From IMG/VR virus record IMGVR_UViG_2563366883_000008: 38,527 nucleotides of DNA. One strand, given 5' to 3'. A program made the position numbers and the translations under genes. How positions within the stretch are numbered: the first letter of the stretch is position 1; each line of letters starts with the position of its first letter. This document shows positions 1 to 38,250 of the stretch, in pieces. The notes under the pieces were generated by a model. The model was not told where the DNA came from, made no database searches, and saw only the letters and a list, made by a program, of their open reading frames with translations. The stretch comes from a virus (lineage: Duplodnaviria > Heunggongvirae > Uroviricota > Caudoviricetes).

Positions 1-738
1 TCATTCACTCTCTTTCAAACCAGTTTTAACTGTTTGTGGTTTTGGGTAAGGCTGGACTTTGAATAGCTTTGTGTTGAGGCGTTTTCTGGCCCTCTTGTTC
101 AGAAACCGGATGTAACGAAACTGTCGGAACTTATGCACACTGGCTCTGTCGATATTAGCCCTCAGATGTTCACCTCGTTGTCCGCCTCGTTTAATGGCAT
201 TCCTGCAAATCTCGTGATACCACTCGCCATCAAGTTCATAGAATATTGTTTCATGGCTGCCTACATAATCAAAATTGCTTGCCTGATACACGACACCAAG
301 ACAGCCACAACGCTCATCTGCAAACGACTGAACCCACTGTACCTGCGGATAAAGCTGCCTGATTAGCTTGAGCGCGTAACTGATTGCCCTTGATTCGGAG
401 TTTCTCGGCATACAGTCATGCAGCCATAGCCGGTTAAGCTCCATATATTCTCGGTTCTGCGTACCCGTTACGACGCGTGCACCACTGTTTGGGTTAAGGG
501 CGTAACCCCATTGCATTACGCCAACAAGTTCCCGTTCTGAAAATATGCCCAGATGAAGGTAGGAGTTATTTACGAAACGGTGGCTGTAATGTTTATTGAC
601 GATGACCAGTCTGGCCAGCCAGCAACTTATTGTCTCAACCCGCAACTCACGGGAGCCATAACCAACGATATTGTCGTTATAGCGAATAAGTTCAGGCGTG
701 CTGATGATACGGGATGTGACTTGCTTTCTGTTCCCCAC
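1..738 (-). CDS. mom: Mom-like DNA modification protein (245 aa); stop codon at 1-3 so the gene is complete
   Basis: Last gene after gin, start overlapped by an upstream Com-like zinc-finger ORF, as in the Mu com-mom operon. Call is positional plus approximate size; not verified by alignment. Confidence 0.55.
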
Positions 739-2318: not shown

Positions 2319-4400
2319 TCATTTATTCACATTAGACGAAGAGACCGCATCGTTAACCTGCACTTTAATTGTGTCAAACAACATCGGGTAAGTGGCTGCA
2401 TTGCCGGTAATATCGGTCAGTGTCAGTTGATCCACCGTGAACCCGGCATTCACCCACTTCACAAGTTCAAATGGTTCACCATCTTTCCCGTCCAGAACTG
2501 GGGTAACACTCATGCTATTACCACCTGCAAACCGTAACGAGAGCGTATGCCATTCATGATCAAAGACACCATACGATCCTATCTGTTGACTTCCGCTCCC
2601 TTTGTGATACATCACATTCAGGTTAGCTGAATCCGTTTGCAGGAAACATGATGCGATGAGGTTATTTTTTCCGTCACCGTCAGGCCAGTTACTTACAGCC
2701 CAGTAAATACCAACACCATACCGGTTTTCCGCAATGCCCGCATCCGATGGAATTTTGAAACGGAGGGAAATATCACCACCTCTGGCGAACAAATCCCTGG
2801 CATTATCAGCTGTGATCGGATGATACATTTTCCATGAGGCCATGCTGTTAGGCGCTTTATTCACCCTTAACGCTTTGTTACCACCTGTTGCAGCAGCATC
2901 CGTGACAAAGGTTGCTTTTCCGGAAGCCGCATTCCACCCCTGATCTTTCATTGGTTCTGTCGGGGCGTTTGCAGTATACGAAACGATGATCTTCATCTGA
3001 TCGCTCACGTCCTTCACATCCCCGGTGGGTTCAGGCTCACTCTTACCGGTATCAGAATGTTCTGTTGCCGTTACACCGCGGAAGAAAGCAGATTTTTGTC
3101 CTGACAATGTCAGAATCGCTGTTGCCAGACGGTCTGAAATAATTCCACGGCGCGCCCATGAACTGAAATGGCTTGCCCTGTCGTTTGATGTCCAGTTAGT
3201 CGAATCGCGACTTATGGCACCATAATAGCCAATACCTGGAATATCCGGGTCTTCATCTGGATTATTTGTCGGTACATTTTTTCCATTTTCATCCACAACA
3301 AATGGAACAAAGTGAATGTTCTTTGCTTCATTAGCATATTTGCCATAAACAGCTTTGTATTGTTCTGGATATGTATTTTTCCAGTAATACGTCGTATCAC
3401 CACAGATCCACGGTACAGAAGCCATATCTCCGGCTGGAGATTGCGCAGAAAAAGCCGAAAGTTCACGCCTGAATGTTTCGACCATCGTCACAAACAGACC
3501 GGAATGTTCAGCATGTTTTCCTGTTTTCAGATCATTCTCGCCCTGCATCCAGACAACGGACAGGAGAATATTTCTGGGGTTACTGCTGAGAGCCGCTTTT
3601 GTTCGGTTAACAAGATCGCTGAACAAAGGTTTATTGACTCCCCAGCGCGATGATGCAGATGTTGCTCCGGAAGCTTCAGTAAATTCACCATCAGCACCAT
3701 CGGTAAATGCAGAGCCTCCTCTGGCACAGGGAACCAGAAGGATACCAGCCTCTTCCGGGATAAAGGGCAGGAGTTTTTTTGCAATATGCAAACCCTGGCC
3801 GACACAACCATACTGACCTTTTGAAAGATCTGCTTTTGGATGATTATGGTTACTCATATCCAGCACATCATGAAGACAGTGATCTGCCGGAATTATATCG
3901 TTGTAGGCGCATTCAACCCCGCCAGGTGTAACCGTGTTACGGCGAGCCAGCTGTTTAATACGTGGATCAGGTCGATCATAGGTATCAGGCAAAGGAAGAC
4001 CTTCACCAAATGACGATGCATTCGACTGACCAGCAATAACAACCACGTAATACCAGGACGGAGTTTGACCTGCAACTTTATCTCCTGCTGAAGAAGTGTA
4101 TGTTTCCGCATTGTTCCAGTCTGACGGTTCAGTAGTACCGGCAACATCAGCACTTAACGGAATGACAGCACCAATACCCGCTCCGGTAATTTCCACGTTC
4201 GGATCACCGGATACTGGCCTTACCCACAGGCAATCCCGTGTATTAAAACTGATGAGACAGTCAGCAAATGTCATACCTCCTTTCGTTTCAGCCGGAGGAA
4301 AGGGAGCCTCAAGAAATGCCGCTGTACCACCGGAAACTTTAACGGTAAAGTTTCCGGGCATTGATGATAGTTGAACCCATTTGGACGTCATAATATTCAT
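2319..4400 (-). CDS. SGNH/SASA-type carbohydrate esterase domain protein (sialate O-acetylesterase-like), 693 aa, with extra N- and C-terminal domains
   Basis: VVIAGQSNA block (GQSN nucleophile motif) in the central region; long C-terminal domain of unknown function; lies between gin and com where Mu has no gene. Family call from motif only. Confidence 0.6.
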   Translation of the reverse strand: MNIMTSKWVQLSSMPGNFTVKVSGGTAAFLEAPFPPAETKGGMTFADCLISFNTRDCLWVRPVSGDPNVEITGAGIGAVIPLSADVAGTTEPSDWNNAETYTSSAGDKVAGQTPSWYYVVVIAGQSNASSFGEGLPLPDTYDRPDPRIKQLARRNTVTPGGVECAYNDIIPADHCLHDVLDMSNHNHPKADLSKGQYGCVGQGLHIAKKLLPFIPEEAGILLVPCARGGSAFTDGADGEFTEASGATSASSRWGVNKPLFSDLVNRTKAALSSNPRNILLSVVWMQGENDLKTGKHAEHSGLFVTMVETFRRELSAFSAQSPAGDMASVPWICGDTTYYWKNTYPEQYKAVYGKYANEAKNIHFVPFVVDENGKNVPTNNPDEDPDIPGIGYYGAISRDSTNWTSNDRASHFSSWARRGIISDRLATAILTLSGQKSAFFRGVTATEHSDTGKSEPEPTGDVKDVSDQMKIIVSYTANAPTEPMKDQGWNAASGKATFVTDAAATGGNKALRVNKAPNSMASWKMYHPITADNARDLFARGGDISLRFKIPSDAGIAENRYGVGIYWAVSNWPDGDGKNNLIASCFLQTDSANLNVMYHKGSGSQQIGSYGVFDHEWHTLSLRFAGGNSMSVTPVLDGKDGEPFELVKWVNAGFTVDQLTLTDITGNAATYPMLFDTIKVQVNDAVSSSNVNK

Positions 4401-4490: not shown

Positions 4491-5051
4491 TTATTTTTCC
4501 GAAACGCTCGCAGGAAAATAACGATAAAGGGTTGAAAGGCCGATATCAAAAATAAGTGCCACCTGTCTTCGGCTGACACCCCCGGCCAGTAAACGCCCGA
4601 CCTGCTCGTATTGTTCCTGCGTGAGACGACGGGGTCTGCCGCCGGTTCGTCCCCTTTCACGGGCAGCTGCAAGACCAGCCCGTGTCCGTTCGACAATCAA
4701 TTCACGCTCCATTTCTGCCAGCGCACCCATTATGTGAAAAAAGAAGCGCCCCATGGGGGTTGACGTATCAATGCTGTCAGTAAGACTACGAAAATTTATC
4801 CCCTGTTGCTGTAATTCATCTGTCAGCGCAACAAGGTGGCGCATACTGCGCCCCAGCCTGTCCAGTTTCCAGACCATCAGCGTGTCACCGGGTTTTAGTT
4901 TCTTCAGTGCCCGCTTCAGTCCCGGCCGCTGTGTTGTTTTTCCGCTCATTTTATCTTCAAAAATCTGCTCACATCCTGCACATTCCAGCGCATTTCTTTG
5001 TAAACCTGTGTTCTGGTCATTTGTTGATACGCGTATATAGCCAATCAGCAT
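4491..5051 (-). CDS. gin: Gin/Hin/Cin-family serine DNA invertase (186 aa)
   Basis: N-terminal IGYIRVSTNDQN catalytic-serine motif, C-terminal HTH; adjacent to an inverted-repeat-bounded tail-fibre segment. Confidence 0.9.
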   Translation of the reverse strand: MLIGYIRVSTNDQNTGLQRNALECAGCEQIFEDKMSGKTTQRPGLKRALKKLKPGDTLMVWKLDRLGRSMRHLVALTDELQQQGINFRSLTDSIDTSTPMGRFFFHIMGALAEMERELIVERTRAGLAAARERGRTGGRPRRLTQEQYEQVGRLLAGGVSRRQVALIFDIGLSTLYRYFPASVSEK

Positions 5052-5105: not shown

Positions 5106-5131
5106 ATCCCTGAAACCTCGGTTTACGGGAA
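5106..5131. other. gix-like recombination site (left)
   Basis: Reverse complement reads TTCCCGTAAACC-GA-GGTTTCAGGGAT, close to Mu gixL TTCCTGTAAACC-GA-GGTTTTGGATAA as I remember it; central dinucleotide sits at the outer edge of the inverted repeat. Confidence 0.6.
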
Positions 5132-5266
5132 ACGGTAAATAAGGCGGCGAATGCCCTGCCATCGGACGGCACCGCTGCGGCAGCGAATAAACTCGCCACC
5201 CCAAGAAATATTAATGGTGTTCCTTTCGACGGGACGCAGGATATCAGCATTACTTCAGGGATGACG
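5119..5266. repeat. Inverted repeat, left copy (148 bp, identical to reverse complement of 6396-6543)
   Basis: Compared base by base in the sequence; identity ends exactly at the gix centre on the outside and after ATGACG on the inside. Confidence 0.9.
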
Positions 5267-5500
5267 CAGTCAACCGCAGATGACCGGTATGTACAGAACG
5301 TTCAGCTTGGAGCACAGAGCTATCATTCACCCGGAGGCAATGAAATGTCATGGAATTACAGTGCGCCTTCCGGTTGTATGCTTTCCGGTATTAACGTGCA
5401 GGAAACAGGAAAAAACTCTGCCGATAACATTGGCGGGGTTTATTTCCGTCCTGTGCAGATATATATCAGTAATGCATGGCGTACAGTTTCATCTGTCTGA
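5261..5500 (+). CDS. Alternative tail-fibre C-terminal segment (S'v-like), not joined to the fibre gene in this orientation
   Basis: MTQSTADDRYVQNVQLGAQ parallels MTESTANQRYVTGVRLGAQ of the fibre C-terminus; in frame with the inverted repeat so inversion would fuse it to the constant part. Confidence 0.6.
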   Translation: MTQSTADDRYVQNVQLGAQSYHSPGGNEMSWNYSAPSGCMLSGINVQETGKNSADNIGGVYFRPVQIYISNAWRTVSSV

Positions 5501-5534: not shown

Positions 5535-6077
5535 TTATTCAGGCTGTTCGGGCCATTTAATGGCATCAAATTCAGCTTCAGTTTTAATGGCGGATGGTTC
5601 CATTTTTTTCACCTGACTGATGTATGCCATCCATCGGGTAAGTGCGGCTCTGTCTTCATCACTGATGGTGCCCAGCTGTAATTCTGTTCTCCAGTCATTA
5701 ATTTTTTCATATGCCTGATTAAGATATAACTGGCGCATTGCTTCCAGTTTTCTTGCGTAGTTAACCGGAATACGGGAGATCACGCCATTATCAAACTTCC
5801 AGTTACCCGAAATATCAGCACCTTCAGGGAGTTCGTCGACTTCAACCACAGAGAACCCCGCAGGATACAGCGCCGAAGCGTCCTGTGATATTGAGCAGAT
5901 AATGCCGCTGTCAGGTGTTATACAAAGTTTATATTTTTTGGTGAATAATGGCAGGGACTCGTAGAAATCCTTACCATCTTCACTCTGAAAATACTGTACA
6001 TCATTACCATAGAGGGTGTTTTCCGGGTAATATCGTTTAACATTAATCAGTTGCATAAACATCACCATGTGAATCAA
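5535..6077 (-). CDS. Tail-fibre assembly protein (Mu U-like), 180 aa
   Basis: Immediately downstream of the tail-fibre gene inside the invertible segment; size and position as for Mu U/Tfa. Positional call. Confidence 0.55.
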   Translation of the reverse strand: MIHMVMFMQLINVKRYYPENTLYGNDVQYFQSEDGKDFYESLPLFTKKYKLCITPDSGIICSISQDASALYPAGFSVVEVDELPEGADISGNWKFDNGVISRIPVNYARKLEAMRQLYLNQAYEKINDWRTELQLGTISDEDRAALTRWMAYISQVKKMEPSAIKTEAEFDAIKWPEQPE

Positions 6078-6176: not shown

Positions 6177-7073
6177 TTAAATACTTGCAGCGGATACCCA
6201 ATTCCCATTAATACAATATTGTATCTGTCTGTAATAAACACGGTCATCACCACTACGCATTTCCCAGTCTCCATCAGTCTTAAAACCGGTAATCACATTT
6301 CCTGATGACAGGGAGTAATTATATTCCAGTCCGCCGCTTAATGCCTGCGCTCCCAGTCTTACCCCTGTAACATAACGCTGATTGGCTGTTGATTCCGTCA
6401 TCCCTGAAGTAATGCTGATATCCTGCGTCCCGTCGAAAGGAACACCATTAATATTTCTTGGGGTGGCGAGTTTATTCGCTGCCGCAGCGGTGCCGTCCGA
6501 TGGCAGGGCATTCGCCGCCTTATTTACCGTTTCCCGTAAACCGACGTTATCGATAAAGGTTCCTTTGTCCGCGATATCCGCGCCATTCTGATCCTTGCGC
6601 AGATAACGGTTATCACCTTCGCTCTTGCTGTAAACATCCAGATTCTGGCGGGCCGTCGGTTTATCCGGTACATCGCCAAAATTCATGGATTTCTCCAGTG
6701 CTCCCACATCATTAGCAGCCAGGCTGTCTTTTCCTGATAATCCTCCAAGCCCAAGATGACGGCGGGCAGCAGCCTGTGCTTCTGCACCTGCATCCGCAAT
6801 CTCCTTAAGGTTGTTTTTCCGGCTGTATGCGTTTGCTGCAATGATTGCCTTAATGGCTATCACCAGCTGGTTCAGTTTTGCCTTATCCGGCTGAACCTGT
6901 CCTTCTGTCAGAATGGCAAGCAGCTCTGCCTGCACGATGTTCAGCCAGTCCTGACCTATATGGCTGATCCCTTTGCGTCCGTCACCTTCAGTAAACCATT
7001 TAACCTGCGTGCCCTGTGAGGGGGCCAGTGGTGGCATATCGGTCACACCTGAATTGTTGTCGACAAAATACAT
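6177..7073 (-). CDS. Tail-fibre protein (Mu S-like): constant part plus variable C-terminus inside the invertible segment
   Basis: Follows baseplate genes; its 3' part crosses the 148-bp inverted repeat (6396-6543) and the gix-like site. Confidence 0.8.
   Translation of the reverse strand: MYFVDNNSGVTDMPPLAPSQGTQVKWFTEGDGRKGISHIGQDWLNIVQAELLAILTEGQVQPDKAKLNQLVIAIKAIIAANAYSRKNNLKEIADAGAEAQAAARRHLGLGGLSGKDSLAANDVGALEKSMNFGDVPDKPTARQNLDVYSKSEGDNRYLRKDQNGADIADKGTFIDNVGLRETVNKAANALPSDGTAAAANKLATPRNINGVPFDGTQDISITSGMTESTANQRYVTGVRLGAQALSGGLEYNYSLSSGNVITGFKTDGDWEMRSGDDRVYYRQIQYCINGNWVSAASI
6396..6543. repeat. Inverted repeat, right copy (148 bp)
   Basis: Reverse complement identical to 5119-5266; lies inside the tail-fibre coding sequence. 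Confidence 0.9.
6531..6556. other. gix-like recombination site (right)
   Basis: TTCCCGTAAACC-GA-CGTTATCGATAA; inner half-site identical to the left site, outer half-site diverged. Confidence 0.6.
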
Positions 7074-15239: not shown

Positions 15240-16742
15240 TCACAAAATGAAACGGATCTGTGCTGCCAGGAAGCGGAACTGGTTAACCAGATCCGGCGTG
15301 CATAACACGTCAAGGCGGTTTCGATCTGACGTATTACGCTCCACAAGCAGATTCTTTTTAAACGTGTCCAGATTTTCGACCAGCCCGAGTTCCACCCACT
15401 CTTCACCCAGCGAAATTAACTGAAGCTTCATGATCTCCGGCGTCACGATATTCTGACCGGCACGAACGGGCGTCCCGTCATCAGCCAGTTTATGGCGCGG
15501 AAAACGTTGAGTGATGAAAGTGCGCAGGGAATAACGCAGATATGACAGGGTGTAGATGGTTTCCACATCCAGATAGCTGGGATCACTTTCGCCGTACACG
15601 TTCTGGCGATACATCGTCACCTGACGCTCAATCTGAACCATATCCCCGGCCGCCACACTGACCGTGGCAATCCCTCCCCACAGCAGACTGTTACGCTCTT
15701 CACGCGTCAGACGATCGGCCGGGGCCGGGGCCATGCGTGACGGAAGCGCCAGCGTCTGAAGCGGACGCGCAGGATCTGCTCCCAGAGAGGGTGCACAGGT
15801 GGCACAGACCGCCGCTGCCCAGAGGTAATCCGGTTCAGGGGCTTTGGGAATGGATGTGCAGGTCGCCAGAAAATCATTGCGTTTTGCCCCGAATGCCTGC
15901 ACCTCACCAAACGTGCCGGTATGTGCCAGCCACAGCACGCCGTCAGACATTTTGGCCGGTCCCCAGCGTTTCAGAAGTTCATCACTGATGATTTTCAGGT
16001 TTGCATCGTCCTTGTAGGGCATGACAACATAGTTGTACTGGCGATCCCCCATTCCGGCCACACTTCGGGTGATATCGGGATTGCGGGCTCTTGAGGAGGG
16101 AAAGCCTGTCTGGGGCGTCAGCCCTGACGGCAGGGTTTCACCGTCGTGATAATTCAGGCGCAGATCGTGCACAGAGCATTCACCAATGAAGCGGGCGCTC
16201 ACTCCCATACTTCCTTTCAGACCGCCTGCATTACTGCCATCAACAACCGCAGATACAGCTGTGAATGGCGCATCAGTATCCTTATTTATCAGGGCAACAA
16301 GCGCATCAATGATAGCTTTTCCTTTTTGTCCGGCTTTTACGGGCAGCGCATAGCGTCGTCCACCAATATAGATGCAGAGCAAACCATCGGTCGCAGCCGT
16401 ACCGGTAAGGTTAAAGGCGGCGGCATTTGCCCCGCCTGTTCCGGCCCCCTGCGCAATAGCATACAGTTCCGCATCAGGATTGATGGCAATAAATTCAGCC
16501 ACCATCAGAGCGATCATGGAGCCACGCCCCCAGAGCTCCACAGCCTGAGAGGCGCGAGTGATCCTGACCGGAACATCCAGCACACCGGTACCGTCCACAG
16601 CATTCTCTTTCATTCTCGCCTGACCAAACAGCAGCACACACTGACGCTGTGCCGGGGTGCCGGTGACCGCCATGGAGTTATTAAACTCAACCCCAATCAG
16701 CGGTATACGGCGGTCATTACCGATCCCGTCAAAATTAATCAT
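15240..16742 (-). CDS. Contractile tail sheath protein (Mu L-like), 500 aa
   Basis: Size and position; followed by tube, chaperone and tape measure. Confidence 0.85.
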   Translation of the reverse strand: MINFDGIGNDRRIPLIGVEFNNSMAVTGTPAQRQCVLLFGQARMKENAVDGTGVLDVPVRITRASQAVELWGRGSMIALMVAEFIAINPDAELYAIAQGAGTGGANAAAFNLTGTAATDGLLCIYIGGRRYALPVKAGQKGKAIIDALVALINKDTDAPFTAVSAVVDGSNAGGLKGSMGVSARFIGECSVHDLRLNYHDGETLPSGLTPQTGFPSSRARNPDITRSVAGMGDRQYNYVVMPYKDDANLKIISDELLKRWGPAKMSDGVLWLAHTGTFGEVQAFGAKRNDFLATCTSIPKAPEPDYLWAAAVCATCAPSLGADPARPLQTLALPSRMAPAPADRLTREERNSLLWGGIATVSVAAGDMVQIERQVTMYRQNVYGESDPSYLDVETIYTLSYLRYSLRTFITQRFPRHKLADDGTPVRAGQNIVTPEIMKLQLISLGEEWVELGLVENLDTFKKNLLVERNTSDRNRLDVLCTPDLVNQFRFLAAQIRFIL

Positions 16743-16984: not shown

Positions 16985-17545
16985 TTACAGTTCCTCCGGC
17001 GGTTCGACCGCCGTTGTCGTGTTCCCCGGCAAATCAATATGTGCCTCAAACGGCGGCGTACCGGGCGGCTCCACAAAGGTTTCGTAATGACGCAGGAAGT
17101 CGTCCAGCGAGCTGATATCCGTCAGTGGCGCGATCATTTCCTCGCAGGAGAAATAAAGCGCATACATCACGGCCCCACTGTTCGCCTGGGTTTCGGTGTA
17201 ACCGTTGACCGCCTTTTCAAAGTAAAGCGGTGAGGTTTTTTCTGTTCTGAAGCCGTTAAGCACGGCAATCAGCCGGGCCACAATCTGATACAGTCCGGGA
17301 CGGCTGGCCTCACGCCCGTTGAGCATGTCGCCGATGACGTAGAACACCCAGTGACTGACCAGGCGACCACGGGTACGGCCTTCACCGGCACCCAGCCAGG
17401 CAACGTAGATCGCCGGAGCGTTAATCAGCATGGTGCGCAGTACGCTGTCGCTCCAGTCGCCGGGATGCGTGTCAACAGACACAAGTTCATTCCCGAAATA
17501 CTCACGGATACGGGCGATGTATGCCTGTTCGGTTTCCGTAATCAT
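16985..17545 (-). CDS. Head-tail joining protein (Mu gp37-like), 186 aa
   Basis: Position between head and tail modules. Confidence 0.55.
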   Translation of the reverse strand: MITETEQAYIARIREYFGNELVSVDTHPGDWSDSVLRTMLINAPAIYVAWLGAGEGRTRGRLVSHWVFYVIGDMLNGREASRPGLYQIVARLIAVLNGFRTEKTSPLYFEKAVNGYTETQANSGAVMYALYFSCEEMIAPLTDISSLDDFLRHYETFVEPPGTPPFEAHIDLPGNTTTAVEPPEEL

Positions 17546-17961
17546 ATGAAGCCCTTCTGGTTGCGCCCGAATACCGCCGCATCAGACTGAACCTGTGGTA
17601 AATCCCCGGATTCAGGGGCCGCACCGTTCGTATCCACACCGACCGGCACATTGCCGTTCATGACATCTTTCAGCCAGGCCAGCGCTTCGCGGTAACGGTC
17701 ACGCGCCTGATCGGAGGCTCTCTGATCGCACAGGTAATAAAAGGCAATCGCGCAACAGTGCTGAACAAGAACTGCCGGAATAACCTCCAGCGGCAGCGTG
17801 TAACGGGCGGACAGATAGCTGTCGATAAGGGCTGACGCATCTGTCAGCGCCCGGTTCAGCTTGCGCGTGTCCGGCTCATCCGAACGGGGCACTGCCAGTA
17901 ACGGCCTGAGCAAATCCTCGCGGTAACGCGCCCGCATATCGGTTTCAGTGGCGTAATTCAT
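17542..17961 (-). CDS. Head completion/connector protein (Mu gp36-like), 139 aa
   Basis: Position after the major head gene region. Confidence 0.55.
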   Translation of the reverse strand: MNYATETDMRARYREDLLRPLLAVPRSDEPDTRKLNRALTDASALIDSYLSARYTLPLEVIPAVLVQHCCAIAFYYLCDQRASDQARDRYREALAWLKDVMNGNVPVGVDTNGAAPESGDLPQVQSDAAVFGRNQKGFI

Positions 17962-18395
17962 GCGTGGGCCTTTTTCGCCTGTTTCGCTTTGTTACCGGTC
18001 TTTTTCCGGGGAGCATCCTGTCCGGCTTCGGCTTCGGCTTCGGCTTCGGCTTCGGCTTCGGCTTCGGCTTCGGCTTCGGCTTCGGCTTCGGCTTCGGCTT
18101 CGGCTTCGGCTTCGGCTAAATCTGTACCGGCCACTGCATGAACCACACCCGCCACGCTCCCCGCATCATCAGCAGGCGTCTGTAGTATTCGCACAGTGAG
18201 GCATGGCTCCGCCTCCAGTCGGGCAAGCTGCTCCGGGGTGACCTCAACCTGCTGACGTCCACGCGTGAACAGGAACCCCGCACGACGAAACGCCGAACGA
18301 CTGCAACGCACTTCTGCCAGCACCGTGACAGAATTGTCACCACTGACCTGAAGACCTGAATCATCTGTTGCTGCCACAGTGTGATGTTCATTCAT
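17958..18395 (-). CDS. Hypothetical head-module protein with (Ala-Glu)n repeat and Lys-rich C-terminal tail, 145 aa
   Basis: Between major head gene and connector genes; contains the GGCTTC tandem repeat. Confidence 0.6.
   Translation of the reverse strand: MNEHHTVAATDDSGLQVSGDNSVTVLAEVRCSRSAFRRAGFLFTRGRQQVEVTPEQLARLEAEPCLTVRILQTPADDAGSVAGVVHAVAGTDLAEAEAEAEAEAEAEAEAEAEAEAEAEAEAEAGQDAPRKKTGNKAKQAKKAHA
18022..18117. repeat. Tandem hexanucleotide repeat (GGCTTC), about 15-16 copies, encoding (AE)n
   Basis: Read directly: cggcttc repeated without interruption across 18022-18117. Confidence 0.95.
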
Positions 18396-18438
18396 ATTTG
18401 CCCTCCGCAGGGGTCGGGCCGTAAACCCGGCTCACCGT

Positions 18439-19386
18439 TTACAGATAATCCGCGACAACCAGCTCCAGCTTGCCCTTCATCTCGTTAGAGACGGTTGCGT
18501 TTCCGTCTGCGAACAGTTCACGCTCCAGCAGCTGCACCGCCTGTTTTTCCAGCGAGGTGGGGACAACAATATGGGTGGGTTTGATGCCGAGTTTGCGGCC
18601 ACCGTCAGCGGTAAATTCGCGCATGGCTGACCAGCCGTGCCACAGTGCATCCAGCGTCAGCGGTGACTGCATCATGTAGGCCATCTGCCAGAAGCCGTAG
18701 CCCACATTGCGACGGGCGGAAGCACCGAACACAAATTCGTTATCGGTGAATGCGCGACCTTCATCGACTTTGGTCTGGGCAACCAGTTCAGCCTTACGGC
18801 GATCCTGATAAATCAGCGGTTTGATTGCGCGTGAACAGTCGAGCAGATACCAGGCAGGACCGCTGTAATCCGCCTGTGCACCGACAGAACCGGTTTTTGC
18901 CACAAACATATTGCTGACCATCTGCGCATCCCCGGAGCCATCAACTTTGGGGTAAACAGGATGTTCGGTATCAAAGAAGTTCTGGCCGTCATAGCAGGCC
19001 GCATTAATCCCGTCACGAAGAGCAGCAAAGACCAGTTCATCCGGTTGTGCCGCAGCAGCGCGCCCCATCTCCTGGAACAACGGGGAATAAATACCGAGGT
19101 TATCGTCTTCGAAGTCATCGCGGTTAATGGCGACGGTGCCTTCAAAGGTTTTGTTCACGATGGCATAGCCATAGGCCTTCATCTTCTCGATGACGCGGGA
19201 GCCGATCCACTCACGGAACTGCGGGAACTGCCCCAGCCAGCCGTAGGTGTTGGATTTCGAGGTGGAGGGCACGGTCATCGCAATTTTTTTGTACTGCGAC
19301 GGGGCCATGGACATCCCGGCCTGAAAATCAGAACGGTAGCCCGTCATCAGGGCGGTGATCATCGCCGGTGTAATCGGGGTAGGCAT
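18439..19386 (-). CDS. Major head (capsid) protein (Mu T-like), 315 aa
   Basis: Size and position after the protease/scaffold gene. Confidence 0.8.
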   Translation of the reverse strand: MPTPITPAMITALMTGYRSDFQAGMSMAPSQYKKIAMTVPSTSKSNTYGWLGQFPQFREWIGSRVIEKMKAYGYAIVNKTFEGTVAINRDDFEDDNLGIYSPLFQEMGRAAAAQPDELVFAALRDGINAACYDGQNFFDTEHPVYPKVDGSGDAQMVSNMFVAKTGSVGAQADYSGPAWYLLDCSRAIKPLIYQDRRKAELVAQTKVDEGRAFTDNEFVFGASARRNVGYGFWQMAYMMQSPLTLDALWHGWSAMREFTADGGRKLGIKPTHIVVPTSLEKQAVQLLERELFADGNATVSNEMKGKLELVVADYL

Positions 19387-20510
19387 TATTGCATTTCCTC
19401 TTTCATTTTCAGGAATTCGGCTTCGGTTTTACCCAGAAGATGGGCGGCGGCGATATCTTCAGCCGACAGCGAGGCGGTGGCGGTCTTTTTATCCGGCACG
19501 GTCACGGTGTCGGTCTGAAGGCCGGTCAGGGCTGCAACCGGCTGTCGGGCGTCAAGCTGTGCAGAAAGTGCAGTAACACCAATCTGCCCACCCAGCTGTT
19601 CCAGATAGCCGCGTTCGCTTTTGAAGATGCGCCCTTCGGACTCGGCCTTGTCCAGCACCTGCTCCAGCGTGGTGCTGCCGTGCTGTGCTGACAGCGCAAC
19701 GTATTCGGTACGCAGGGCGTTATACGTTTCAATGGGCACATATTTCGTCAGATCAATACTGCCGCCAGCCGGTGTACCTTTTGCGGTTTCCAGCTCTGCC
19801 GACAGACTGGCGACCTGTGTTTTCAGGTTGTCGTGTGCATCCGCACGGGTTTTGATCCCGGTGAGGGCAGACAGCGCCGCCGTGCCCAGCTCCGGCGTAA
19901 ATTCGTCACCGTCAGCCACGGTCAGACCGAGCGCCGTCAGCAACTGGCGTAATTGCTCATTCATGGAGGTATCCTTTAAAGGAGGGTTTAAGGCGTTATA
20001 AAGGTCATCCGCCGACAGCGCGGCGACAGGATTCATGCCGGTCAGACCGGGGTCACCGGTAATAGCCAGCATCCGAAGTTCGACAGGTTCGCCGGTGTTC
20101 TCGTCATAGCCAATCACCGGTGAAAACCAGGGGAATTCGTTATTACGCAGATGTTCAAGGGCCGGAGGGTTCCACTTCGGGCGCACCTCGAAGCCACGCT
20201 CTTCACTGAAGCGGAAGTTTTCCGGTGAAGCCGTCACAAAACCGGCAGCCGGTGCCTGATGCCCCTTAATCAGGGTCTGGTGGTTGTAGTCAATTTTGAC
20301 CGGCTGATTGAGCGCCACAACCCGGGATACCATGCGCTCAACGGTCGCACGGTTAATCAGCCAGCCTTCAGCCGGTTTTTCCGGGCGACCGTCACGGGCC
20401 TTTACCCGACCGGCTGGCATGATCTGACACCAGTCACCGTCCCCGTCTGCGGACAGGCTGATGGCATTCAGAATGGCATAAGCAAGTTTGGGCGTGTTTT
20501 TCGTCTTCAT
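19386..20510 (-). CDS. Head protease/scaffold protein (Mu I-like), 374 aa
   Basis: Position between G and the major head gene; Ala-rich C-terminal half consistent with a scaffold domain. Confidence 0.75.
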   Translation of the reverse strand: MKTKNTPKLAYAILNAISLSADGDGDWCQIMPAGRVKARDGRPEKPAEGWLINRATVERMVSRVVALNQPVKIDYNHQTLIKGHQAPAAGFVTASPENFRFSEERGFEVRPKWNPPALEHLRNNEFPWFSPVIGYDENTGEPVELRMLAITGDPGLTGMNPVAALSADDLYNALNPPLKDTSMNEQLRQLLTALGLTVADGDEFTPELGTAALSALTGIKTRADAHDNLKTQVASLSAELETAKGTPAGGSIDLTKYVPIETYNALRTEYVALSAQHGSTTLEQVLDKAESEGRIFKSERGYLEQLGGQIGVTALSAQLDARQPVAALTGLQTDTVTVPDKKTATASLSAEDIAAAHLLGKTEAEFLKMKEEMQ

Positions 20511-36159: not shown

Positions 36160-38250
36160 TCAGGCCAGCGGGTCATTTTCTTTTAATTTCGCTTCGAGCA
36201 ACTGCAATCCCCGCTGGAAATTACGCTCGTATTCTTCATCAGGCTCATCATCAACGGCAGGTTGCTGAACGGCCACCGTATTACCTACCGGGCGATAGAT
36301 GTTTTCCAGCCAGGGCTCTTGCGGCTTGTGCTCCAGCACGTTGACCACCTCATCCTCGGCATCACGGATTTTTTCCTCTGCACGTTTACGCATGCCTTTA
36401 AGGCGTTGCTGCTGTTTGTAGTATTCCGCGCTGACCGGGAAGGCTTCGCGTTTATTGCCGTCCCATACCGCCTCGCAAATCACGCTGCCATCCAGGCGAC
36501 GCACGGTAATTCGTTCGGCATCATGAATGTCATAGCTGATAAGCACCTTGCGGCCATGCTCGTCACGCAGCTCGGGCGCGTAGTAAATATTATTCAGCCA
36601 GCGTATTTCACAGCGTCTTACAGGGCGTTCCACCATCGGCCGGAACATATCCCGCAGCTCAACATCGGACAGCCATTCAATTTCAGTGTCCTCTTCCGCC
36701 AGGCGTTTTTTTCTGAACTCCGCCGGGCTGTAATGTTTCCCGTTCGGCTTCATGGGTAATTCATCGTGCGGCCGGTTGTTGTACCACTCAACACCGTCAC
36801 GAATGGCATCAATCAGTTCAGACCAGGACGGTAAATCACGCATCGCTGACTGCTGCCGGGCGTTCAGCCGTTTGCCCTGTTGCAGGGCAGTAAATGCCGA
36901 GCGTAAATCGCGGTTGGTTTTGCGTAACGTCTCGCGATCTGCACCTTTCCCGAAATAGGTGCGGTATTTACGGGCTATGCGCATCGGTAATGTGCGGTTA
37001 AGCCGTTCGATAATGCCTCGTCCCTGCGGATTACCGGCAATCCCGGTCGGGTGATTAATCCCCAGTCGCGGCAGTATCCCCACAACCTCCTTATCCAGGA
37101 TGTCGGCGGTTTCCCCGGAGCCGTTATCCGAGTAATACAGAAACGGTTTGCCGTGATGGCGAATGCCGTGCTGTATGGCTCCGGCTACGGCGAAAACATT
37201 TTCAGCCAGGTCAAGGCTCCAGCCCACCACAAAGCGCGTGCCACCGTCGATAACAAAGGTCACTTCCGGTGCAAATGGCCGACCGTGAACCGGGTGTGCG
37301 CATTTCAGCTTCATGCCGTGACCGTCACCAATCCAGACATAATTCACCGGCATTTTTGACCAGTCGCGGCGCGTGAATCCCTCAAGCTGGCGGTATTCAC
37401 TGCCGGTCACCCGGCCTTTTTGTTTCACCACTTCCGGCAGTTTCTTCATTGCGCGGCGAATGGTGTCATAAGACGGCATGATATCGAGCATATAAGGCTC
37501 ATCAGCGTGCCGGTGCTGCCATTCAGCGACAAAATCCTCGTAAGCCTCGGTCATTGGTCGACCGTTTGACTGGCGATACTGCGCCAGAAACTCGGGCAGC
37601 CAGTTAATATCTTCGGCTTTTATTTCCTGGCGCTTACCCGGTGCCAGCAAAAGCAGGCGTTCAGCGGCGTTCTGCGCCTTGTTAAAGGCTGCAATCCAGC
37701 GTTTCAGCGTGATTTCACTCAACGCGCGGCTGTTTCCCTTTTTGGCGTTCGCCGTCTCAACCATTGCCACAATGCGCTCGTCCAGTTGCGAACGTGCCAG
37801 GTTGTCAACGATAAACCGGATAGCCTTCGCGCAGCTGAAACCGGGTTGTTGCGCGACTTTCATCACTTCGCTGACGATCGCGATTCGTGCATCAGCCACC
37901 TGGCGCTGGTTTTCAGTCAGGGCATTAAGGCGTTCAACCATCAGTTGTGGTGATCCGCGATATGCCTCCACCGCATCAACCACGGCAGGCGAGCGTCTGG
38001 CCTTTGTCACCACCGGAGCCGGTGATTCATCGGCTTTTTGCGTCATCAGTTGAAGGGCATAACGTTCACGCAATACTTGTTGCGCGCCAGAAGGCAAACA
38101 ATCGATATTAAATTCGATTGCTTTTGTCCCCTTACGTTTGCGTAACATGGCTGCATTTCCCGCAGCTGCTTTTGTGAGTCGATGGCGAATGTTATGTTCC
38201 ATCATTGGTAAATCAGGAAGACCAACACATTCTTTTGCTGTTACCCACAT
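36160..38250 (-). CDS. A: DDE transposase A (MuA-like), 696 aa
   Basis: Size, position between ner and B, central DDE-type core (VWIGDGHGMKL region). Confidence 0.9.
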   Translation of the reverse strand: MWVTAKECVGLPDLPMMEHNIRHRLTKAAAGNAAMLRKRKGTKAIEFNIDCLPSGAQQVLRERYALQLMTQKADESPAPVVTKARRSPAVVDAVEAYRGSPQLMVERLNALTENQRQVADARIAIVSEVMKVAQQPGFSCAKAIRFIVDNLARSQLDERIVAMVETANAKKGNSRALSEITLKRWIAAFNKAQNAAERLLLLAPGKRQEIKAEDINWLPEFLAQYRQSNGRPMTEAYEDFVAEWQHRHADEPYMLDIMPSYDTIRRAMKKLPEVVKQKGRVTGSEYRQLEGFTRRDWSKMPVNYVWIGDGHGMKLKCAHPVHGRPFAPEVTFVIDGGTRFVVGWSLDLAENVFAVAGAIQHGIRHHGKPFLYYSDNGSGETADILDKEVVGILPRLGINHPTGIAGNPQGRGIIERLNRTLPMRIARKYRTYFGKGADRETLRKTNRDLRSAFTALQQGKRLNARQQSAMRDLPSWSELIDAIRDGVEWYNNRPHDELPMKPNGKHYSPAEFRKKRLAEEDTEIEWLSDVELRDMFRPMVERPVRRCEIRWLNNIYYAPELRDEHGRKVLISYDIHDAERITVRRLDGSVICEAVWDGNKREAFPVSAEYYKQQQRLKGMRKRAEEKIRDAEDEVVNVLEHKPQEPWLENIYRPVGNTVAVQQPAVDDEPDEEYERNFQRGLQLLEAKLKENDPLA

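Follow-up and report, generated by a model that had tools for sequence, protein, structure and literature searches.

An in-frame six-base tandem repeat of variable copy number in the gp35-family gene of an Sp18-like, Mu-like prophage of Escherichia coli

The window analysed here, which is the whole stretch of 38,527 nucleotides, contains almost an entire Mu-like prophage on the minus strand, with prophage Sp18 of Escherichia coli O157:H7 Sakai as the closest annotated relative. The Mu-type transposase A is encoded at 36160-38250 (minus strand) and a Mom-family DNA-modification protein at the window edge (1-738, minus strand; Pfam Mom, E 1.4e-77). Starting from the tail sheath gene (15240-16742, minus strand), the genes for a DUF2635 protein, gp37, gp36, the repeat-bearing protein considered here and gpT follow in this order; the gpI protease gene is found at 19386-20510 (minus strand), and baseplate and tape-measure genes are also present. 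A gene for a Gin-like serine invertase (4491-5051, minus strand; Resolvase and HTH_7 domains) lies beside a segment of approximately 1.08 kb that is flanked by inverted repeats of 179 nt each (5114-5292 and 6370-6548; 95% complementary). The tail-fibre assembly gene (5535-6077) is located inside this segment and the tail-fibre gene (6177-7073) contains the distal inverted repeat, an arrangement that looks like an invertible host-range switch of the Mu G-segment type. The gene at 2319-4400 (minus strand), between those for the invertase and Mom, is apparently of the cargo type and lies at the late end of the prophage. Its 693-aa product combines DUF6645 with a SASA carbohydrate (sialate O-acetyl) esterase domain and presumably resembles NanS-p, the esterases that EHEC prophages carry. 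Annotated insertions of the same Mu-like phage in Stx1a- and Stx2c-converting phages (LC727895.1 and LC727881.1; L013), along with the presence of up to four copies of the prophage per genome, suggest active transposition in STEC.

The repeat-bearing open reading frame (17958..18395, minus strand; ECs_4975 in Sakai) starts with ATG, is preceded at a distance of 5 nt by a Shine-Dalgarno sequence, GGAGGG, read from the sequence (18401..18406, minus strand), and encodes a protein of 145 aa. Upstream is the gene for the 315-aa major head protein gpT (18439..19386, minus strand; Pfam Mu-like_gpT, E 3.4e-119) and downstream the gene for the 139-aa head-tail adaptor gp36 (17542..17961, minus strand; Pfam Phage_Mu_Gp36, E 3.5e-35), so that the location between the major head gene and the connector genes proposed in an earlier note on this DNA holds. 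By the coordinates of the two reading frames, the stop codon of the repeat-bearing gene and the start codon of gp36 overlap in an ATGA (17958..17961, minus strand), an overlap that is also annotated in phage Mu and that probably couples the translation of the two genes.

The protein belongs to the family that includes Mu gp35 and Haemophilus influenzae HI1506, as indicated by a match to FluMu_N (PF17891) over residues 36-72 with 37.1 bits (the Pfam gathering cutoff is 25.8) and by the gene order gpT-gp35-gp36, which is common to Mu, Sakai Sp18 and Edwardsiella. It falls into phrog_3622 of PHROGs (E 2.6e-80; category unknown function), is named "HI1506-related protein" in RefSeq, matches the NMR structure of HI1506 (FluMu gp35; PDB 2OUT) at the sequence level (phmmer, E 5.7e-5) and shares 51% identity with Mu gp35 over residues 23-63 (tblastn). 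A collection of 15 billion proteins contains no entry identical to the 145-aa product of the window. In the cryo-EM study of Mu, gp36 is described as a dodecameric adaptor and gp35 is left unresolved (PMC11915804). The GenBank record of Mu labels gp35 a "head-to-tail connector complex protein", which we read as an inference rather than a demonstrated role, and the literature searched under the names HI1506 and gp35 describes no role for these proteins. A head decoration or cement protein was considered and is unlikely, given that the fold matches no solved virion protein and that the Mu capsid has no cement proteins (PMC11915804).

The structural model generated with AlphaFold2 divides the protein into two unequal parts. 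A folded N-terminal FluMu_N domain (approximately residues 22-73, 18177..18332, minus strand), consisting of a beta-hairpin, a helix and a strand, is supported by AlphaFold2, Foldseek and Pfam, with pLDDT values of 88-95 for residues 21-70; Foldseek retrieves 2OUT with a probability of 1.00 and nothing else below E 0.6. For residues 79-145 pLDDT drops below 50, and the repeat tract is accordingly predicted to fall in a disordered part of the protein. The product ends in ...AGTDL(AE)15A followed by the basic tail GQDAPRKKTGNKAKQAKKAHA (residues 125-145, 17961..18023, minus strand), which is predicted to be disordered as well. Both of the features that the earlier note had singled out in this part of the protein are present: the Lys-rich tail, with 6 Lys and 1 Arg among the last 21 residues, and the (AE)n tract. 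The description of the tract as a linker is apt only in that it connects the folded N-domain with the basic tail of 21 aa, rather than with a second domain.

At the DNA level, the tract is a tandem array of perfect six-base units that occupies positions 18023..18117 (minus strand), reads (GCCGAA)15 and part of a further unit on the coding strand (GGCTTC on the plus strand) and encodes (AE)15A, residues 94-124. Tandem Repeats Finder reports a period-6 run of 95 nt and 15.8 copies, with 100% matches, no indels and a score of 190; a regular-expression search counts 15 full GGCTTC units (18024-18113); and the codon listing of the minus strand gives TTA (GCC GAA)x15 GCC GGA, i.e., L(AE)15AG. These three approaches confirm the GGCTTC repeat encoding (Ala-Glu)n that a model had noticed from the sequence alone at 18022-18117, where the start is immaterially off by one base. 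No other perfect tandem repeat with a period above 2 and at least 4 copies was detected elsewhere in the 38.5-kb window; hence the claim that such perfection is unusual in a structural-gene cluster stands within the window, but six-base perfect VNTRs are common in E. coli O157 genomes. Plus-strand reading frames that run across the array and would encode (RL)n, (GF)n and (AS)n arise mechanically from the repeat and have no support as genes.

All 30 of the 30 codons in the array are GCC or GAA. With ordinary E. coli codon usage, the probability that chance alone would yield this uniformity is about 1e-11, and a chance origin of the array is excluded. The purity of the codons points to a process acting on the DNA rather than to selection for Ala and Glu composition. 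Conceivably, the repeat could serve a function of the nucleic acid itself, with the peptide incidental: it might form an mRNA structure, pause translation and thereby set the ratio of gp35 to gp36, or be a DNA site to which a protein binds. The array is located 62 nt upstream of the ATGA-coupled start of gp36, so a ribosome crosses it before gp36 initiation. However, this mRNA segment folds no better than its shuffles (z +1.13) and matches no Rfam family; no promoter-like site was found around the gene, and neither of the two terminator-like matches lies in the array. Furthermore, GAA and GCC are common codons in E. coli, and any function of this kind would need to tolerate from 1 to 20 copies (see below). 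A role at the nucleic acid level thus appears highly improbable.

The gene was identified in 229 E. coli records, corresponding to 228 of 5,426 complete genomes (approximately 4%), with up to 4 copies per genome. A separate scan of genome contigs yielded a single, unrelated Elusimicrobia locus, the species-representative E. coli genome in that set being devoid of the prophage. With a fixed 596-nt query, the matched span in the E. coli records varied between 509 and 617 nt by increments of 6, in two series offset by 3 nt. The offset reflects two types of tail, ...KAKQAKKA(H/R)A and the 9-nt-shorter ...KAEQARA; apart from the tail type, every length difference among the fetched alleles is a whole number of GCCGAA units. 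In a sample of 57 full-length records, evenly spaced among the complete genome records, there are 17 length alleles with 1-20 units (median 9; Nei D 0.93), and 8 of the 57 carry a single unit. These copy numbers are taken from assemblies, and short-read assemblies often break in the array. Eleven alleles were fetched, and all of them translate in frame. Ten contain the array, with 1, 1, 2, 9, 10, 11, 16, 16, 16 and 20 units compared to 15 in the window, and are codon-pure GCC/GAA except in L006, where the first unit is GCCGGA; the eleventh (L011) lacks an array and shows a degenerate tract with interruptions (AEAETV). Among IMG/VR contigs, which form two sublineages with about 88% identity, copy numbers range from 1 to 16, and the alleles with interrupted units (AEAETV, AEAETETV) remain short, as expected if slippage requires pure units. 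The tail is polymorphic as well (alleles L001-L011 and L016-L040), with many K/R/E/N substitutions and a net charge that is always positive.

The most telling comparison involves the alleles of PA20 (10 units), strain 143 (16), F1 E4 (20) and Sakai Sp18 (8), whose flanks, compared over 40 nt on the left and 330 nt on the right, show 0 mismatches. Because different lengths occur on identical flanks, array length appears to change far faster than point substitutions accumulate. The perfect head-to-tail units and the whole-unit differences between otherwise identical sequences qualify the locus as a VNTR. The rate of change looks moderate and typical of a VNTR rather than extreme, given that copy number usually agrees between sister isolates (8 units in each of FRIK2455, FRIK2533 and FRIK2069; 10 units in 96_1414B as well as in 96_1414P). 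Single-unit steps are seen among near-identical cattle genomes, with 14 units in strains 133 and 139 and 13 units in strains 130 and 138. The earlier note had proposed that copy number be compared among related prophages and had held that a six-base unit would let length vary in frame; the comparison revealed differing copy numbers, from 1 to 20 units, the opposite of the uniformity that would have argued against active variation, and the in-frame variation is borne out by the 17 alleles in 57 records, by the 8, 10, 16 and 20 units on identical flanks and by the 1-16 units in IMG/VR.

Dozens of database entries are "partial" gp35 sequences that end inside (AE)n (e.g., P0038, P0059, P0049 and P0069), and two IMG/VR contigs (L022 and L023) terminate within the array, which is evidently a recurrent contig-break point in short-read assemblies. 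These breaks, and the partial proteins and contigs that end in AEAE, lend some substance to the suspicion that array length was miscalled in the window or in the compared genomes. Nevertheless, lengths differ by exact multiples of 6, the units are perfect, and the data come from more than 200 finished genomes produced by many laboratories; the array (12-125 nt) is shorter than typical reads, and independent assemblies of the same or sister strains agree. An assembly or sequencing artefact is almost certainly not the explanation.

Alleles of different length could also be reshuffled by recombination or exchange between different Mu-like prophages, whether resident together or arriving by infection, whose arrays are old and stable. 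The phage is mobile, has been found inserted within Stx phages and reaches 4 copies in a genome, and strain OkiPb01696 harbours copies with 8 and 10 units on different flanks. Since multi-copy genomes exist, recombination between prophages may contribute to some of the allele differences. As the main source of alleles, however, it is improbable: the short-tail (O157/Sp18-type) series alone includes fifteen different lengths, and the four fetched alleles of this series have the identical flanks described above; the arrays are homogeneous, whereas old stable arrays would have gained synonymous interruptions; and near-identical genomes differ by single units.

The relatives of the protein help to place the array in an evolutionary context. 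An exhaustive HMMER search over 1.84 billion representative proteins recovered only 21 relatives, which typically consist of a variable N-terminus, FluMu_N, a low-complexity, acidic, Pro- or Gly-rich segment and a C-terminal domain of about 45 aa with the consensus DLNxRIRxA..L.KDNPxHFT..GKPKV.AVS..LG..V...QI.AAL. Mu gp35 also has this layout of N-domain, acidic segment and C-domain. HI1506 reportedly comprises two small domains with basic patches, with about 30 unstructured residues as the linker between them, and is said to have been proposed to bind nucleic acids; of this, the PDB title of 2OUT confirms "two domain" only. The orthologue from Edwardsiella (P0085) has 62% identity across the N-domain, retains the C-domain and is encoded in an identical neighbourhood (I, 374 aa; T, 315 aa; gp35, 155 aa; gp36, 139 aa; gp37; DUF2635; sheath). 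The E. coli protein departs from this two-domain architecture: in alignments the C-domain is missing or collapsed, AlphaFold2 predicts no fold past residue 78, and after ...VAGVVHAVAGTDL there is only (AE)n and the 21-aa basic tail. Within the gp35/HI1506 family, it is best regarded as a variant with the N-domain alone. In the DNA alignment with the Edwardsiella gene, the strongly conserved N-domain is followed by three gaps in the E. coli gene, with one island of similarity, GGTAACAAAGCGAAACAG aligned with GGTGACAAAGTGACCCAA, which suggests, with modest support, that the basic tail is what decay has left of the family's C-terminal helical domain. None of the other homologues examined contains a tandem array at the DNA level.

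The FluMu_N domain is also found in other settings (P0091, P0093, P0098, P0101 and P0105). Tandem pairs occur at the C-terminus of proteins of 180-316 aa, where in P0105 the pair is accompanied by an N-terminal helix-hairpin-helix-like motif, and proteins of 789 and 1,815 aa show matches in 6-7 separate stretches. FluMu_N thus seems to be a reusable module that is not restricted to gp35. A chimeric protein of 154 aa from a Logan assembly (P0087), in which gp35 residues 1-41 are fused to a sequence of the Gp48 family, would imply a variant of the prophage in which a deletion has brought gp35 and the baseplate region together.

Based on the above observations, the repeat is an in-frame six-base VNTR of the gp35 gene of Sp18-like prophages that is probably driven by slippage, probably lies in a weakly constrained, disordered region and probably varies in a mostly near-neutral fashion. 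In the simplest account, the microsatellite would have been born from a 1.5-copy seed, GCC GAA GCC; the one-unit alleles, which read GCC GAA GCC GGA, are such a proto-repeat (GCCGAAGCC), still carried by relatives. From this seed, whole GCCGAA units would have been gained and lost stepwise through slipped-strand mispairing, either during replication of the host chromosome or during replicative transposition of the Mu type. Because the unit comprises 6 nt, or two codons, the reading frame and the ATGA-coupled start of gp36 would be kept in every allele, and the effect would be confined to the product, in which the polyanionic (Ala-Glu)n stretch between the FluMu_N domain and the basic tail becomes longer or shorter. 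A phase-variable contingency locus was ruled out for the same reason: the 6-nt unit lies inside the reading frame and all alleles translate at full length. The C-terminal helical domain appears to have been lost in this lineage, and in a disordered region lacking that domain the length of the tract would be weakly constrained and its variation mostly near-neutral. Near-neutrality is also what the broad distribution without a mode, the frequency of one-unit alleles (8/57) and the decayed, disordered character of the region argue for.

Copy number does alter the protein. The calculated net charge changes from +0.9 (pI 7.9) at 1 unit to -13 (pI 4.7) at 15 units and -18 at 20 units, and this shift may have a functional effect. 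It is therefore worth asking whether the locus is a selected one of the contingency type, with the phage gaining from a hypermutable (AE)n segment of varying length and negative charge, either through the reach or strength of the basic tail on DNA or on a virion part, or through escape from a host defence that recognizes gp35. The very high allelic diversity (D 0.93), the occurrence of expansions in two sublineages, the magnitude of the electrostatic change and the persistence of a basic tail despite its fast sequence turnover all fit this possibility, as does the retention of the gene, in frame, in all alleles seen; the in-frame state, however, is automatic with a 6-nt unit. No copy number is favoured, one-unit alleles being common beside those with 2-20 units, and the tract occupies the region of a decayed ancestral domain, which implies relaxed rather than intensified selection. 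There is, moreover, no known phenotype, defence system or partner, and gp35 is not seen in the Mu virion structure (PMC11915804). Selection for a variable segment is accordingly considered unlikely. A more specific version, in which (AE)n next to a nucleic-acid-binding basic tail or C-domain acts as a hypermutable dial of charge that supplies the phage with a standing spectrum of gp35 variants, is more doubtful still. If true, it would mean that the variants are unequal in how they engage DNA at the portal or neck, or in how readily a host immune sensor detects gp35, and that an in-frame contingency locus resides inside a phage morphogenesis gene. The statement that repeat variation "tunes linker length" is hence valid in the literal sense, given that length varies in frame, but selection on length or a functional consequence is unsupported.

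Under the slippage-driven, near-neutral reading, this coding VNTR is a familiar phenomenon that involves no new mechanism, carried as it is by a prophage of E. coli, in which loci of this kind are well known. Its practical value is that of a highly discriminating length marker, with at least 17 alleles, for Sp18-like prophages and their STEC hosts, and it explains the recurrent contig breaks and "partial" gene calls in short-read assemblies. The alleles also form a natural series of deletions and insertions in gp35, which is among the last proteins of the Mu morphogenesis operon without a known role. The N-domain is conserved and the C-terminal part tolerates both the loss of a domain and the presence of 1-20 Ala-Glu units, which narrows down where the function resides and makes ready-made gp35 alleles available for experiments.

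Several known systems resemble the locus in part. With HI1506 and Mu gp35 it shares the FluMu_N domain, the position between gpT and gp36 with the ATGA overlap and a flexible, low-complexity segment after the N-domain; unlike these proteins, the one encoded in the window lacks the C-terminal helical domain of about 45 aa and has (AE)n and the 21-aa basic tail instead. Like the genes of phage decoration and cement proteins, it is a small gene directly downstream of the major capsid gene. The phase-variable loci of Haemophilus and Neisseria are similar in that they contain a perfect short tandem repeat in a coding region and mutate by slippage, as the gp35 locus would also do, but, in contrast to those contingency loci, the unit here is a multiple of 3 nt, there is no on/off switch, and it is length and charge that vary. 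A further parallel is with the MLVA loci of E. coli O157:H7 (TR1-TR7 / Vhec / O157-n), which likewise have a 6-bp unit, perfect head-to-tail arrays and whole-unit alleles. No prior description of the gp35 VNTR was found in the literature searched. The comparison with named loci covered the motifs of TR1-TR4 (AAATAG, TGGCTC, TATCTT and TGCAAA, respectively), from which the gp35 motif, GGCTTC/GAAGCC, differs, and eight PulseNet primer pairs, none of which could be placed in the window even when up to 5 errors were tolerated. In a further difference from the MLVA loci, the gp35 VNTR resides on a mobile prophage that only about 4% of the complete genomes of E. coli carry and would therefore yield null alleles in a typing scheme. 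The variation of O157 VNTRs is attributed to polymerase slippage, and the diversity of the gp35 locus (D 0.93) is on a par with that of TR2 (0.92), the most variable O157 MLVA locus (PMC2246123).
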